From assembly GCA_943348815.1 (NCBI GenBank), contig CALQYT010000001.1, positions 92,994 to 156,993 on the forward strand: a DNA stretch of 64,000 nt, read 5' to 3'. This DNA is from Candidatus Nomurabacteria bacterium. Lineage in GTDB: Bacteria > Patescibacteriota > Minisyncoccia > Phycocordibacterales > SBAW01. Of this stretch, positions 1,715-55,465 are shown piece by piece. The notes below the pieces were generated by a model that was given only the letters and a program-made list of their open reading frames with translations, was not told the DNA's origin and made no database searches. The position numbers were made by a program, and so were the translations under genes. Positions within the stretch are counted from its first letter, which is position 1; each line of letters opens with the position of its first letter.

Positions 1715-1779
1715 TGGTCAATGATTCTTGACTACTAAATTATTGACCATATAGTATTGTTAAATAAAGCTAAAAAACT

Positions 1780-11845: not shown

Positions 11846-11988
11846 ACGGCCACACTATGTGCTTGTTGGCAAGTATAGTCAATAGATTTTGACCAAAAAT
11901 AGGCTTATTTTAGAGCTTTTGAGGGCAATTTAGGTAGCGTGTTGTCAGACTCAATTGACAAAGTACATTTTAGCCTTATATTGCAAGG

Positions 11989-51091: not shown

Positions 51092-51210
51092 AAAGTTAGT
51101 TGTTAGCCATTAGCCACTAGGGTTTAGTAAAGTCTGGCCTTAAAAACAAGAAAACCGCCCACTCGGGGCAGTTACCAGATAATGCAAGTATAGGGGCTAC
51201 CCGCTTATTG

Positions 51211-51576
51211 TCAAGCAGCCTGTGTTTTGTCGGGACCAAAAAGCTTGGTCGTTTCTGCTTCTAGTGCCTTCATCGACTCCATACTTTTTGCAGTGAGGTC
51301 CGCCAAAAATACTTGCTGATCTGGCGTAAGCGTAACCGCTTTAATTTCGGCGTTGTATTGGTCCAAGAGAGCAGTCTGTTCGCGAATAGTTTGTACTTGC
51401 TGAGAGATAGCACGCTCGCCATTTGGAGTTTTGGCTTCAGCCGAATTCTCCCCCATGTACTTACGCAGCCCTTCTATCGCTCTAATGACTCCTGCGGTTT
51501 GTATAGCGATTTGATTGATCCGATCTTGCGGCGTGCGGGGGACTTCGGGAGGGCTGTCAGGGTCTTTCATAAACAT
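51211..51576 (-). CDS. hypothetical protein (121 aa) upstream of nusA
   Basis: ORF only; not RimP-like. Confidence 0.4.
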   Translation of the reverse strand: MFMKDPDSPPEVPRTPQDRINQIAIQTAGVIRAIEGLRKYMGENSAEAKTPNGERAISQQVQTIREQTALLDQYNAEIKAVTLTPDQQVFLADLTAKSMESMKALEAETTKLFGPDKTQAA

Positions 51577-51615: not shown

Positions 51616-52362
51616 ATGCTGAAAGAGCTCCAAGATATTGGTCTCTCCGAAAAAGAAGCACGCGTCTATTTGGCGGCTCTAGAGTTGGGGAAGACTACGG
51701 CAGAAAAACTGGCCACCCATGCCAAGGTCAACCGCTCGACCACCTACGTGCAGCTGGAGTCTTTGATGAAAAAGGGCCTCATGAGCACCTACGAAGAGGC
51801 CAAAAAAACTTATTTTGCGCCCGAGTCGCCCGAACTTCTGCGCCGCTTGCTTGCCAAGCAGCGTGACGAGATGAGTACGAAAGAGCGCGACCTCTCTAGC
51901 CTCCTCCCCGCACTCCTGCAGCAGTACGATGGCGCGGGCGAGCGCCCCGTGGTGCGGTTTTATAGCGGTAAAGAGGGGATTACCGCTATGCGCGAGGATA
52001 CCCTTTCGCTAAATGGAGGAGACGAAATGCTCATTATTTATTCTTTAGATGCTTTGCAGGGTTTATATACTGAGAAGGAAACTGCAGATTATGTACGCCG
52101 CCGCATCGAAAAAGAAATACGAGTACGATGTGTTTACACGAGGAAAGAAGGTAAACTGCCACCCGATACCCTCCCTGCGCTTATGGAGCGGCGGTTTGTG
52201 CCAGAGAAAAAGATGCCTTTAACTACTGATTTTTTTGTACATAAGAATAAGGTTGCGATGATGGCTTTGCGTGGCCATCTCTTCGGTGTAGTGATTGAAA
52301 GTAAAGAAATAAGCGAAAGCTTCAGAAGCCTTTTTGAAATGATTTGGGCTGGAGGCGAATAG
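51616..52362 (+). CDS. TrmB-like winged-helix transcriptional regulator
   Basis: IGLSEKEARVYLAALELGKTTAEKLATHAKVNRSTTYVQLESLMKKGLM; tail SLFEMIWAGGE. Confidence 0.8.
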   Translation: MLKELQDIGLSEKEARVYLAALELGKTTAEKLATHAKVNRSTTYVQLESLMKKGLMSTYEEAKKTYFAPESPELLRRLLAKQRDEMSTKERDLSSLLPALLQQYDGAGERPVVRFYSGKEGITAMREDTLSLNGGDEMLIIYSLDALQGLYTEKETADYVRRRIEKEIRVRCVYTRKEGKLPPDTLPALMERRFVPEKKMPLTTDFFVHKNKVAMMALRGHLFGVVIESKEISESFRSLFEMIWAGGE

Positions 52363-52766
52363 CCATTTTCGTAAACGTAGAAGGGACGGCTTCGCGCATT
52401 TCGCCGCTAGGCCGTCCCCCTTGAGCACAAAACTCCCTATTTACCGCCAGCCTATTGTAAGGCGGTCAATGCTGAGAGCGAGTGCTCCTCGCGCTCAGCG
52501 TTACCAGCCCACGGCCGGCCTCATGGTGATAAGCATGGTTGTGCTCTCTGCTTTGTGGGGCGGCCACGTGGCCCACCCCGGGTTGCCGGGAGTACTCACG
52601 TACTGTCATCCCGGACAAGTTTGATTCTACTTTAGTTAAAGGAAATTGGCAAACAATTTGTGCACAAAACACCTGTTTGTTACTCTAAACCAACTATTTA
52701 ATCTGTCAAAAAAGGCTTTAAATAAAGCCATTTTGTACTTATCCACAGTGTTCATGTTAATATTCA

Positions 52767-52794
52767 TTGACAGTCCAGAGCGTTGGAATATAGT
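52767..52794 (+). promoter_or_regulatory. near-consensus sigma70-type promoter (TTGACA-16-TATAGT) inside an ORF-free region
   Basis: TTGACA at 52767..52772, TATAGT at 52789..52794. No protein gene downstream for about 400 nt; terminator at 53120..53151. Confidence 0.45.
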
Positions 52795-53014
52795 TACTGT
52801 GTCAAACGAAATTGACATCGTATGAAAAGCCAAAACACACGAGAACCGCCGTAACGAAAGAGGAAATGCCGAGGTTTTAAGATGCAGAAGATTAACAGAA
52901 TAAAAATTTCAAAACAATGAACAAAATAAACGGGTCGCCGCCAGGAGGTAGAGCAGAGAGGGGAGAGAAGGTAGAGAAAGACAAAGTGCAGCCGACAGAC
53001 TCAGGTGTTACCTT

Positions 53015-53102
53015 GCTCCCCGCCCCAAGTGCATAGGACTACGAGCCCGCTCTCGGATTTAGATAGACAAAACCGATACAGAGCGAGCACTTGGGGCGGG
53101 GA
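53015..53102. repeat. long imperfect hairpin (16-bp perfect outer stem TCCCCGCCCCAAGTGC / GCACTTGGGGCGGGGA)
   Basis: Arms at 53017..53032 and 53087..53102 are perfect reverse complements. Confidence 0.6.
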
Positions 53103-53119
53103 ATAGATCACAGCTGAGC

Positions 53120-53151
53120 GGAACGAACCGGAACACGGTTCGTTTTTGCTT
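53120..53151 (+). terminator. intrinsic terminator
   Basis: AACGAACCG-GAACAC-CGGTTCGTT followed by TTTGCTT. Confidence 0.6.
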
Positions 53152-53190
53152 CCCCGACGCTTTGGTCGGGGTTCCGACTAAAACGTCGGG
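53152..53190. repeat. GC-rich double-hairpin miniature repeat (CCCCGAC-GCTTTG-GTCGGGG + CCGAC-TAAAAC-GTCGG)
   Basis: Reverse-complement copy of 25220..25258. Confidence 0.6.
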
Positions 53191-53206
53191 ATATAATAAG
53201 TGAGTA

Positions 53207-54652
53207 ATGGAACCGAGTAACTGGTTACGCCGGGAGGTCATGAGTGATGACGAGCGACGACATGCGCTCGCGCACGAACTTGGGTTGCCCTTTGTGGCGC
53301 TCGGGCGCGACGACATTGCGCCCGAAGCAATGATGCTGATACCCGAGCCGCTCTCGCGCGAGCACAATGCGGTTGGCTATCAGGTAGGAGAAGGTGGTTT
53401 AGAGGTTGCACTGCTCGACCCGGCCGACTTGGACGCACTCTACTTTTTGCGCTCGCAATACCGCCTGCTGCCGCGGTTGGTCACGCGCGAGGATATGATC
53501 CGCGCTCTCCTGCACTACCAAAAACATCTCTACGAGGTATACGGCCGGCATCTGGAGCGTGGCGAGGGCCAAGGCGCGCTCGACACGCTGTTGCGCCACG
53601 CGCTGGTGAGCCACGCGAGCGACATACATTTGCAAACAACCGACAAAGGATTTTTGGTGCGGTACCGCATTAACGGCACACTCAAAGACGCGATGACGCT
53701 GCCGGCCGCTACGGGAGCGCGATTGGTTGATAAGTTGCGTACGCTTGCGCGCTTGCCTGCAAGCAGTTTGCCGCGCGAGGCGAGACTCCGCGTCGACTTG
53801 GGGCATGGCGAAGAAATAAATATTGGCGTCGCGAGCATGCCGACCATTGGCGGCGAAAAATTATTACTGAGCCTTACGCGCAACCGCGAGCGGCGCGGTT
53901 GGACGCTCCACTCGCTGGGGTTGCACGGCGAGGCGCTCGAGCGCGTGCACAAAACGCTACTGCATCGCCGCGGCGTCATTGCCATAACCGGCGCGCCGGC
54001 ATCGGGCAAAACTACGCTCTTGTATACGATGCTCGATTTGCTTAATACGCCCGAAATTTCGGTCGCGACGGTGGAGCAGTCGGTCGCAGAGATTTTACCG
54101 CGCGTCGCCCAAACCGATCTTGCGGTAACAGGCCTTAGTGTTGGTGCGGCATTGCGCGCGGCACTACGCACCGACCCAGATGCGGTGCTCCTTGATGAGC
54201 TCGGCGACTCTAACAGCGCGGCGGTTGCCGGTGCAGCGGCGCTGCGCGGACTTTTGATTGTTGCCACCACGACGCAAGCAGAACTTCTGCCGCAAGCGAC
54301 GTTTACGGTCCGCACGGCGCTGTTGCGCAAACTTTGCGACAAAAAGTTTTTGCAAAAATCAAAACTCACTCGAGCCGAGGCCGACACGCTTGAAGATGCC
54401 GGTGCAAACTTTGCCAACGTACTTGCGGCACTCAAAGAAGAAGATAAGGTAGCCAAAGACACCGCATGGAAGGATATTACGTTTGCCCGTGCAAGCGGCT
54501 GCAGCGAGTGCGATGGCGGGTACCAAGGGCTGCTTGGCGTGCAAGAGGTTGCGGCGCAAGAGGGGGTGGTTGGGCTCAATGTGCTCGAAGATGCACTCTA
54601 TAAGGCGGCGCAAGGGCTAACTTCGATAGAAGAGGTGCTTGCGCTCGTATAG
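53207..54652 (+). CDS. GspE/PilB-family secretion ATPase homolog, GC-rich, with a degenerate His box
   Basis: T2SSE_N-like N-terminus; Walker A GAPASGKTT; Asp box DPDAVLLDELGD; His-box position reads LLIVATTTQ; C-terminal GCSECDGGYQG tetracysteine-like motif. Confidence 0.6.
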   Translation: MEPSNWLRREVMSDDERRHALAHELGLPFVALGRDDIAPEAMMLIPEPLSREHNAVGYQVGEGGLEVALLDPADLDALYFLRSQYRLLPRLVTREDMIRALLHYQKHLYEVYGRHLERGEGQGALDTLLRHALVSHASDIHLQTTDKGFLVRYRINGTLKDAMTLPAATGARLVDKLRTLARLPASSLPREARLRVDLGHGEEINIGVASMPTIGGEKLLLSLTRNRERRGWTLHSLGLHGEALERVHKTLLHRRGVIAITGAPASGKTTLLYTMLDLLNTPEISVATVEQSVAEILPRVAQTDLAVTGLSVGAALRAALRTDPDAVLLDELGDSNSAAVAGAAALRGLLIVATTTQAELLPQATFTVRTALLRKLCDKKFLQKSKLTRAEADTLEDAGANFANVLAALKEEDKVAKDTAWKDITFARASGCSECDGGYQGLLGVQEVAAQEGVVGLNVLEDALYKAAQGLTSIEEVLALV

Positions 54653-54661
54653 AGTGCTATA

Positions 54662-55465
54662 TTGGCATCAATGAAAAAGCTCGTCGTCGCCAACTGGAAG
54701 ATGTATGTCGAGGACAAGGCGAGTGCGAGCCGCTGGCTCAGCAAAGTTTCGCGGGCTAACCCCGACGCCAAAGGGTCGGGGCCCCGACCGAAGCGTCGGG
54801 GAAAACTAAATATAGAGGTGTGGGTGGCAGCGCCTGTGGTGTTTATTAAAAAGAGTTCGCTACCGATGGGCGCGCAAACCGTTTCGCAATTTGAAAATGG
54901 TGCGCATACGGGCGAGCTAAGCGCTGCCGTACTTAAGGAAGCGGGCGCAAAATTTGCAATAGTTGGACATTCCGAGCGCCGTGCTATGGGCGAAAATAAT
55001 GATGCGGTGCATGCACAGCTGGTGCAAGCCACACACGCGGGACTAACCCCATTACTTTGTGTGGGCGAAGGTGAGCGCACGGCAGAGGGCGCGCATTTTA
55101 CCTTTATAGAAGAGCAGCTAACCTCGGCGCTACGCGGTATGCAGTCGATTGTCGAAAAGTTGGTGGTAGCCTACGAGCCGGTCTGGGCGATAGGTAAAAG
55201 TGCGAGCGAGGCAATGAAGCCACAGGAGGTTGAAGAGACGGTAATTTTTATCCGCAAAGTATTGAGTGATGTGCTTGGGCGCGAGCCGGCACGCAAAGTA
55301 CGTGTACTCTACGGCGGTTCGGTCGAGGGAGAAAACGCACATACCCTTTTGCACGATGGCGGGGTTAATGGATTTTTGGTTGGTCACGCGAGCGCGACAC
55401 CCGAGTCATTTATAGAAATATTAAAAGAAACCGGCCGCCTTTCAAAGGACGTTAAGGCGGCATGA
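54662..55465 (+). CDS. tpiA: triosephosphate isomerase
   Basis: ANWKM, IVGHSERR, YEPVWAIG, GGSV motifs. Carries an in-frame 42-nt GC hairpin repeat at 54760..54801. Confidence 0.85.
   Translation: MASMKKLVVANWKMYVEDKASASRWLSKVSRANPDAKGSGPRPKRRGKLNIEVWVAAPVVFIKKSSLPMGAQTVSQFENGAHTGELSAAVLKEAGAKFAIVGHSERRAMGENNDAVHAQLVQATHAGLTPLLCVGEGERTAEGAHFTFIEEQLTSALRGMQSIVEKLVVAYEPVWAIGKSASEAMKPQEVEETVIFIRKVLSDVLGREPARKVRVLYGGSVEGENAHTLLHDGGVNGFLVGHASATPESFIEILKETGRLSKDVKAA
54760..54801. repeat. GC-rich double-hairpin repeat copy embedded in-frame in tpiA (encodes NPDAKGSGPRPKRRG)
   Basis: CCCCGAC-GCCAAAG-GGTCGGGG-CCCCGAC-CGAAGC-GTCGGGG. Same family as the 25220 and 53152 repeats. Confidence 0.55.

Follow-up and report, generated by a model that had tools for sequence, protein, structure and literature searches.

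A candidate lineage-restricted module of two divergent small transcription units beside a TrmB-family gene in a Patescibacteriota genome

Short leader open reading frames (ORFs) ending in Pro-stop or Pro-Pro-stop slow translation termination, as in Escherichia coli TnaC and uORF2 of cytomegalovirus UL4, and Pro-Pro-stop is among the slowest contexts for termination. Long near-perfect RNA duplexes protect 3' ends or act as substrates of RNase III. To our knowledge, hardly anything has been charted of the small proteins, leader peptides and regulatory RNAs of the uncultivated Patescibacteria radiation. Hayes, Bose and Sauer reportedly described C-terminal proline-induced SsrA tagging in 2002. 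The locus analysed here is a gap of 844 bp (52363-53206) in a stretch of 64,000 nucleotides (nt) from a Candidatus Nomurabacteria bacterium (the window; an ENA contig of 10 kb, L001, is identical to its DNA). An earlier sequence-only reading had placed the gap between a regulator gene and a GspE/PilB-like gene, and Pfam bears this out, assigning the flanking products to the TrmB-like and T2SSE/MshEN families. By its flanking proteins the window belongs to Patescibacteria (Paceibacteria, Kaiserbacteria-like).

The gap is read here, with somewhat more confidence than doubt, as a conserved but unannotated, lineage-restricted module of two divergent small transcription units beside a TrmB-family gene (Table 1). 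This reading rests on sequence comparison. The module matches no curated RNA or protein family, yet each kind of element that it would contain (micro-ORFs, leader peptides, a structured 3' end and a divergent regulated promoter pair) is a known one. On the plus strand a near-consensus promoter would make an RNA of about 350 nt (approximately 52801-53150, predicted from promoter and terminator). Its unstructured, purine-rich 5' two-thirds would be translated into an upstream peptide of 10 amino acids (aa) and a peptide of 39 aa, and its 3' third would fold into a very stable hairpin holding the stop codon, followed by an intrinsic terminator. On the minus strand two tandem promoters would make an RNA of about 240 nt with a structured leader, a micro-ORF ending in Gly-Trp-stop and a terminator abutting the 3' end of the TrmB gene. 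The two units would share an AT-rich control region. Genomes of Patescibacteria (the candidate phyla radiation, CPR) are tiny and densely packed; a conserved "empty" stretch of 0.7 to 1 kb is thus unusual, and here it appears to hide unannotated genes.

The sequence-only reading had described the element as upstream of the pilB-like gene; comparison does not support a link to that gene. Orthologues of pilB at 56-60% identity lie in the order nusA (minus strand), pilB (plus strand), small ORFs, tpi and pgk, with a nusA-pilB spacer of just 120 to 230 bp and neither a TrmB gene nor any trace of the gap sequence; of the loci with a pilB orthologue, eight (six distinct) are without the element. When genomes and metagenomes were scanned with the PilB protein, the matches were only paralogues of ≤ 36% identity and one relative at 50%, none with the gap sequence. 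Because pilB orthologues without a TrmB neighbour lack the gap sequence, the element is not a general feature of pilB, and since they had neither the TrmB gene nor the element the search was moved to TrmB homologues. Six distinct loci were compared (the window, L116/L117, L119/L120, L123/L124, L118 and L125; 59-71% protein identity), and in all six a gap of 690 to 980 nt without a long ORF lies directly 3' of the TrmB-like gene. The gene after the gap is pilB in the window, L116/L117 and L119/L120, a DUF3298 gene in L123/L124, and in L118 and L125 an ORF of about 68 aa followed by an MJ1673-family gene. The module appears to travel with the upstream regulator gene, with which it co-occurs in 6/6 loci, and not with pilB.

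Relatives carry a further group of small ORFs, of 67 to 77 aa, located after pilB or after the TrmB module (L111, 5803-6024; L113, 5566-5799; L118, 5279-5485; L125, 4439-4642). Most have an Asp/Glu-rich segment and a C-terminal ...EAE-LL--Y... motif. Those inspected have a consensus promoter of their own, and some also have a long structured leader and a terminator.

Between the window, L116 and L119 two blocks of the gap, 52625-52852 (block A) and 52987-53151, can be aligned as nucleotide sequence. Their identity is 70-83%, against only 56-71% for the flanking proteins. Block A covers the AT-rich centre together with the beginning of the plus-strand transcript and is also matched in L123 (E = 1e-12) and, weakly, in L118. 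The second block is the hairpin and terminator region. Pattern scans of viral contigs gave no match to the hairpin and four chance matches to the promoter block, in its seed only.

The expectation that the gap holds no obvious universal RNA proved correct. At the gathering threshold Rfam 15 gave no match in the gap, the only matches in the window being four tRNAs elsewhere, and in a permissive scan of 52200-53400 the best matches were at chance level (≤ 24 bits against thresholds of 34 to 95). Nothing was found in the homologous regions of L116, L118, L119, L123 and L125, and no family reached E = 0.01 in the gap or in these five relatives. ARAGORN gave no tRNA or tmRNA in the gap and, in the gaps of relatives, only a tRNA-Pro(CGG) in L123 (4575-4647). 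This tRNA gene lies directly 3' of two small ORFs with CCG-CCG, and its CGG anticodon reads CCG; its placement, seen in one genome only, may be a coincidence.

The sequence-only reading had also held that the gap contains no credible ORF. In fact the 39-aa ORF, the 10-aa upstream ORF and the minus-strand micro-ORF are all conserved in related genomes. Counterparts of the upstream ORF have 10 or 11 codons (MNSQHTREPPR, MTTKNTSQGPP and MTINNINAPP, each before a stop), and CCG CCG stands at the stop or one codon before it in 4/4 cases, these being all the genomes with block A. Between the window and L116 the upstream ORF has three synonymous and two non-synonymous changes in frame, against 0:4 and 0:4 in the other frames. 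Within the 39-aa ORF family (window, L116 and L119) the same stop codon is used and the variable middle changes by in-frame indels only. The homologues share an N-terminal ...N-R/G-S-P-P, a Gly/Ala/Glu/Lys-rich middle and the C-terminus SGV-A/T-F/L-L/C-PAPSA; the 39-aa peptide is hydrophilic. L116 and L119 differ by seven synonymous and one non-synonymous changes in frame, compared with 3:7 and 0:9 out of frame. Their switches between codon families (Arg CGT/AGG and Ser AGC/TCG) point to coding, because constraint at the nucleotide level cannot explain them. A fourth homologue of 42 aa with an in-frame deletion (P0242, MNKAYAPPGESVEKDKVQPTDSGVSFLPAPSAQDIAPALGLF) was found by an exhaustive HMMER search of 1.8 billion representatives, while Pfam and NCBIfam gave no match to any of the micro-peptides. 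Conservation gives good support to the discrete transcript of about 350 nt, with a promoter and a terminator of its own, that had been proposed as a non-coding RNA. It is most likely a small mRNA, with two ORFs under selection at the amino-acid level.

The description of the gap as structured holds for the 3' third of the plus-strand transcript, an apparently conserved RNA structure absent from Rfam, and fails for the 5' two-thirds. The 16-bp perfect inverted repeat predicted earlier (53017-53032 with 53087-53102) is present and lies within a longer hairpin, conserved in related genomes, with 8 + 3 + 15 outer pairs and an inner stem of 5 + 4 bp (39 pairs). Its 16-nt asymmetric internal loop is invariant and holds the stop codon of the 39-aa ORF. 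Across three genomes 95.7% of cells are paired, against 31-46% with the partners slid. Comparative alignment, suggested earlier as a check for compensatory change, revealed two compensatory double changes, one of them a synonymous AGT/AGC change in the ORF, and several G-U pairs that form on the plus strand only. The RNA structure seems to be selected in its own right, because conservation of the non-coding 3' arm equals that of the coding 5' arm. The whole of 52800-53152 folds better than its shuffles (z -3.9). A covariance model of the hairpin (R1), run over 93 sources (0.8 Mb), found only the window, L116 and L119, the loci with pilB downstream, and the hairpin block was not found in L123, L118 or L125. 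A minus-strand ORF of 36 aa across the hairpin in the window and L116 was set aside as incidental to the palindrome, its frame being lost in L119.

The intrinsic terminator that had been predicted 3' of the hairpin is also present, although a simple terminator scan of the region did not list it. In L116 and L119 its position is kept and its sequence is different in each genome. The purine-rich tract noted earlier is evident from an AT skew of 0.54 and a GC skew of 0.23 at 52800-52999.

Several GC palindromes in the left part of the gap had been listed among its features. They are present (GCTGAGAGCGAG / CTCGCGCTCAGC at 52471-52482 / 52488-52499; GGCCACGTGGCC at 52562-52573) but appear to be post-ORF and leader hairpins of the separate minus-strand unit. 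The region 52370-52620 folds with z -4.8 on either strand. The micro-ORF of this unit ends in ...GGW-stop in four relatives, ...GGGWLK-stop in L119 and Val-Gly-Trp-stop in the window, and this C-terminal end is its only conserved part across the six loci. A Shine-Dalgarno (SD)-like sequence lies 6 to 9 nt before its ATG in five relatives and is weak in the window. One or two more hairpins stand between the micro-ORF and the terminator, and in 6/6 loci a strong hairpin with a minus-strand U-run abuts the TrmB stop codon, the U-run of the window being the weakest. The evidence for translation of this micro-ORF is weaker than for the plus-strand ORFs. Pairing in trans of its run of Gly codons with the plus-strand run of Pro codons was considered and dropped, since the window copy, inspected by eye, is without a complementary run.

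Between the two units lies the putative control region. The plus-strand promoter is where it had been predicted, and the gap region has four promoter-like sites against 1.3 expected. Hexamers of the sigma-70 type are kept in alignment A1 (window, L116 and L119) and in L118, L123 and L125. Around the -35 box and the predicted transcription start are two palindromes of the form TGTYAR-N6-YTRACA, whose half-sites co-vary across the six loci (TGTCA/TGACA versus TGTTA/TAACA). A DNA operator is a more economical explanation than an RNA hairpin, because the copy at the -35 box lies outside the plus-strand transcript. The palindrome between the divergent promoters (GGCTTTAAATAAAGCC) could be operator-like or a weak bidirectional terminator. 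Together these palindromes would be operators for a dimeric regulator, for which the adjacent TrmB-like protein is, by its position, the obvious candidate. Pairs of RGTCAA-N6-TTGACY palindromes also occur in two other divergent intergenic regions of the window (1716-1733 / 1784-1801 and 11877-11894 / 11943-11960). In both regions the palindrome type overlaps -35 boxes, at 11.9 kb with both copies. This motif, the same as at the 52767 promoter, may be a recurrent operator. As the same type occurs at other window promoters, the TGTYAR palindromes may belong to a factor other than TrmB.

If the plus-strand unit works as its features suggest, the upstream ORF would slow termination at Pro-Pro-stop and so tune how the downstream ORF is translated or how stable it is. 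Hairpin and terminator together would stabilize the 3' end of the RNA and insulate the pilB-like gene, which would start from its own leaderless -10 box.

Several points weigh against this reading. The plus-strand ORFs are known from three or four independent sequences and the hairpin from three, so that the statistics are thin; 47 of 500 shuffles reach the covariation score of the hairpin. No gene caller predicted the micro-ORFs, and a word-indexed protein search with the alignment of three peptides gave no match. The C-terminus of the 39-aa family is not strictly fixed, because P0242 has Gln in place of the stop codon. Conservation of the last 12 codons cannot be assigned to peptide or RNA, because they overlap the hairpin. 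On the minus strand, what is conserved of the micro-ORF amounts to one nucleotide motif (GGCGGCTGGTAR) that shows almost no synonymous variation, the window copy diverging most. Regulator binding and stalling at Pro-Pro-stop are proposed from general knowledge of such elements.

Some of these points would be expected if the plus-strand transcript were a truly non-coding small RNA of about 350 nt, with the hairpin as its functional part and the ORFs incidental. The unit does have a promoter and a terminator of its own, conservation of the transcript is highest in the 117-nt hairpin, non-coding 3' arm and internal loop included, and both the lost stop codon of P0242 and the lack of predicted protein homologues in the word-indexed search are in keeping with this view. 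Neither plus-strand ORF is preceded by an SD sequence, but that is the rule in this genome, where only 9/54 window genes (54 long ORFs) have an SD-like motif. A non-coding RNA is nevertheless unlikely. In the N-terminal part of the 39-aa ORF, outside the hairpin, L116 and L119 differ by five nucleotide changes in four codons, all synonymous and including CGT to AGG, and every indel of the variable middle is a multiple of three in length. Over its 5' two-thirds the transcript folds less well than shuffled sequence (z +0.7 to +2.5), as would be expected of translated mRNA.

It is also rather improbable that the plus-strand unit is a cis-acting leader of pilB, in which pilB would be reached only when the terminator is bypassed and the upstream ORF or the 39-aa ORF would act as sensor (attenuation). 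The arrangement invites this explanation, as both are on the same strand, the distance from the end of the terminator to the pilB ATG is about 55 nt in the window and < 20 nt in L116 and L119, and the hairpin block occurs only in the three loci with pilB downstream. Furthermore, a clear -35 box is missing from the pilB promoter, which does have a -10 box. In these three loci, however, its TATAAT is 7 to 9 nt away from the ATG, a leaderless distance typical of the genome: a -10-like hexamer ends 5 to 9 nt before the start codon in 23/54 window genes, with a sharp peak at 6 nt, showing that leaderless mRNAs are common. The pilB-like gene probably has a leaderless start of its own. No alternative antiterminator pairing was found, and the terminator folds equally well with the 5' arm of the hairpin masked, so no ribosome-controlled antiterminator is apparent. 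Terminator sequences vary between genomes while the hairpin is invariant. In addition, the block of promoter and upstream ORF follows the TrmB gene even where pilB is elsewhere, and the pilB-orthologue loci described above lack it.

A bolder and equally doubtful proposal is a dual-function RNA of a new family, in which the 117-nt hairpin would act as RNA while its 5' arm encodes the C-terminus of a microprotein. The hairpin could then bind a protein, be processed by RNase III or form the body of a small RNA derived from the 3' end. Together with the Gly-Trp-stop RNA it would form a TrmB-controlled bidirectional switch at the pilus ATPase gene, governing pilus expression in these episymbiotic bacteria. 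A role in host attachment and DNA uptake has been proposed for the type IV pilus machinery of such episymbionts, and in part of the lineage the module adjoins a type IV pilus ATPase gene.

A non-functional spacer or decayed remnant of lost genes is very improbable, being largely refuted by the pattern of conservation. The GC-rich left half of the gap cannot be aligned between genomes, and gap length and downstream gene differ among loci, as they might in a remnant. But promoters and terminators are conserved on both strands, the 70-83% identical blocks contain compensatory stem changes, and tblastn with the small proteins of relatives (the ~70-aa family and others) found no counterpart in the window. 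The gap ORFs that were tested match no Pfam family.

That the AT-rich centre is a replication origin or other DnaA-binding region was rejected as scarcely credible: it has an invariant perfect DnaA-box consensus in a stretch of 34% G+C and gene orientation diverges near 51.6 kb, but there is one box and no cluster (15 one-mismatch copies in the window against 10.3 expected, which is chance level), cumulative G-minus-C has no minimum here, and the flanking genes are nusA, TrmB-like and pilB, not dnaA or dnaN.

Table 1. Features in and around the gap, by position in the window (strand: +, plus; -, minus;., none assigned)
Feature	Position	Strand	Remarks
TrmB-family regulator gene	51616-52362	+	248 aa; Pfam PF01978, E = 2.4e-14
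Terminator hairpin, arms 52383-52396 / 52405-52418, U-rich tail on minus strand	52368-52418	-	Inverted repeat I4
Putative micro-ORF MLITMRPAVGW-stop, 11 aa, ends Gly-Trp-stop	52501-52536	-	Counterparts in relatives of 15-49 aa
Structured 5' leader including GGCCACGTGGCC palindrome	52537-52617	-	Fold z -4.75; sequence not conserved in relatives
Minus-strand promoter 1, TTGCCA-17-TAGAAT	52624-52652	-	10/12 matches; positions kept in L116 and L119 (TTGACA with TATACT or TACAGT)
Minus-strand promoter 2, TTGACA-16-TAGAGT	52682-52709	-	10/12 matches; conserved in alignment A1
Palindrome GGCTTTAAATAAAGCC between divergent promoters	52714-52729	.	Nearly invariant in window, L116, L119 and L123
TTATCCACA, DnaA-box consensus	52739-52747	+	Sole perfect copy in window; invariant in alignment A1, present in L123
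Palindrome TGTTAA-N6-TTGACA overlapping -35 box	52755-52772	.	TGTYAR-N6-YTRACA equivalent, by eye, in all six loci
Plus-strand promoter, TTGACA-16-TATAGT	52767-52794	+	11/12 matches; both hexamers conserved in all relatives
Perfect palindrome TGTCAA-N6-TTGACA at predicted transcription start	52800-52817	.	Operator or 5' RNA hairpin
Upstream ORF MKSQNTREPP-stop, 10 aa, ends Pro-Pro-stop	52822-52854	+	Starts about 27 nt after -10 box
12-aa ORF, stop overlaps next start (ATGA)	52882-52920	+	Window-specific, not conserved in relatives
39-aa ORF MNKINGSPPGGRAERGEKVEKDKVQPTDSGVTLLPAPSA-stop	52917-53036	+	Homologous ORFs in L116 (39 aa) and L119 (43 aa)
Conserved long hairpin, 117 nt	53001-53117	+	5' arm encodes last 12 codons of 39-aa ORF; -54.5 kcal/mol, z -6.5
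Intrinsic terminator	53122-53151	+	Stem 53122-53130 / 53136-53144 (inverted repeat I13), then T-run TTTTTGCTT
Extra hairpin, window-specific insertion	53153-53190	+	Inverted repeat I3; absent from L116 and L119
pilB-like -10 box TATAAT, 9 nt before ATG	53192-53209	+	TATAAT + 7-9 nt + ATG kept in L116 and L119
pilB-like T2SSE/MshEN ATPase gene	53207-54652	+	Directly 3' of gap

Further observations concern the flanking genes. The database PilB-like protein P0001 has 470 aa, 11 residues short of the 481-aa ORF, and fits a start at 53240, the second in-frame ATG; conservation of TATAAT + 7-9 nt + ATGGA in L116 and L119 speaks for the more upstream ATG, at 53207. The extra hairpin before pilB has an inverted partial copy of 29 nt (90% identical) at 54775-54803, within the start of the tpi gene. 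On the other side, nusA and the TrmB-like gene are separated by a minus-strand ORF of 121 aa (51211-51576) that matches no family; in L116 and L119 these two genes adjoin and the ORF is missing.

The region upstream of nusA (51115-51215, minus strand; core 51134-51192) has a promoter, TTGACA-17-TATACT, and almost at the start of its transcript a terminator-like hairpin (CUGCCCCGAGUGGGCGG) with a U-run. Across 13 related loci (10 distinct sequences) this element keeps an identity of 82-98%, even in one whose pilB is just 50% identical. It looks like a conserved nusA leader attenuator. In Bacillus subtilis autoregulation of NusA via a leader terminator is known.

Two general points follow for genomes of this kind, poor in SD sequences and rich in leaderless mRNAs. 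Conserved micro-ORFs escape standard gene callers, and a stretch that is free of ORFs and structured is not by itself a sign of non-coding RNA.

Among known systems, Rfam families such as RNase P RNA, tmRNA, SRP RNA, 6S RNA, riboswitches and the Weinberg/Breaker motifs resemble the locus in being structured intergenic RNAs with significant folding energy, but none matches even at E = 0.01 in the window or the five related loci. Archaeal TrmB, TrmBL1 and Tgr act at palindromic operators. Here, too, the TrmB-family gene always adjoins a promoter with palindromes at the -35 box and the start, although the sequence of the palindrome differs from the archaeal motifs, binding is only predicted, and the same type of palindrome is found at other promoters of the window.

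Dual-function RNAs provide another comparison. Like SgrS/SgrT, RNAIII/delta-haemolysin and SR1/SR1P, the plus-strand unit, a predicted RNA of about 350 nt that has a promoter and a terminator to itself, combines a conserved small ORF with a separately conserved structure. Here, however, the structure is not a separate seed region but overlaps the end of the ORF, and no base-pairing target or function at the RNA level is known.

A further comparison is with the Pro-stop leader ORFs TnaC and UL4 uORF2. Stalling is only predicted at this locus, and its 5' region is unstructured, offering no regulated downstream structure; neither mutually exclusive terminator and antiterminator nor SD-masking structures were found there. 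What the locus shares with these leaders is an ORF of 10 or 11 codons at the 5' end of the transcript, with CCG CCG at or next to the stop, and this arrest-prone Pro-Pro C-terminus is conserved in all four genomes.

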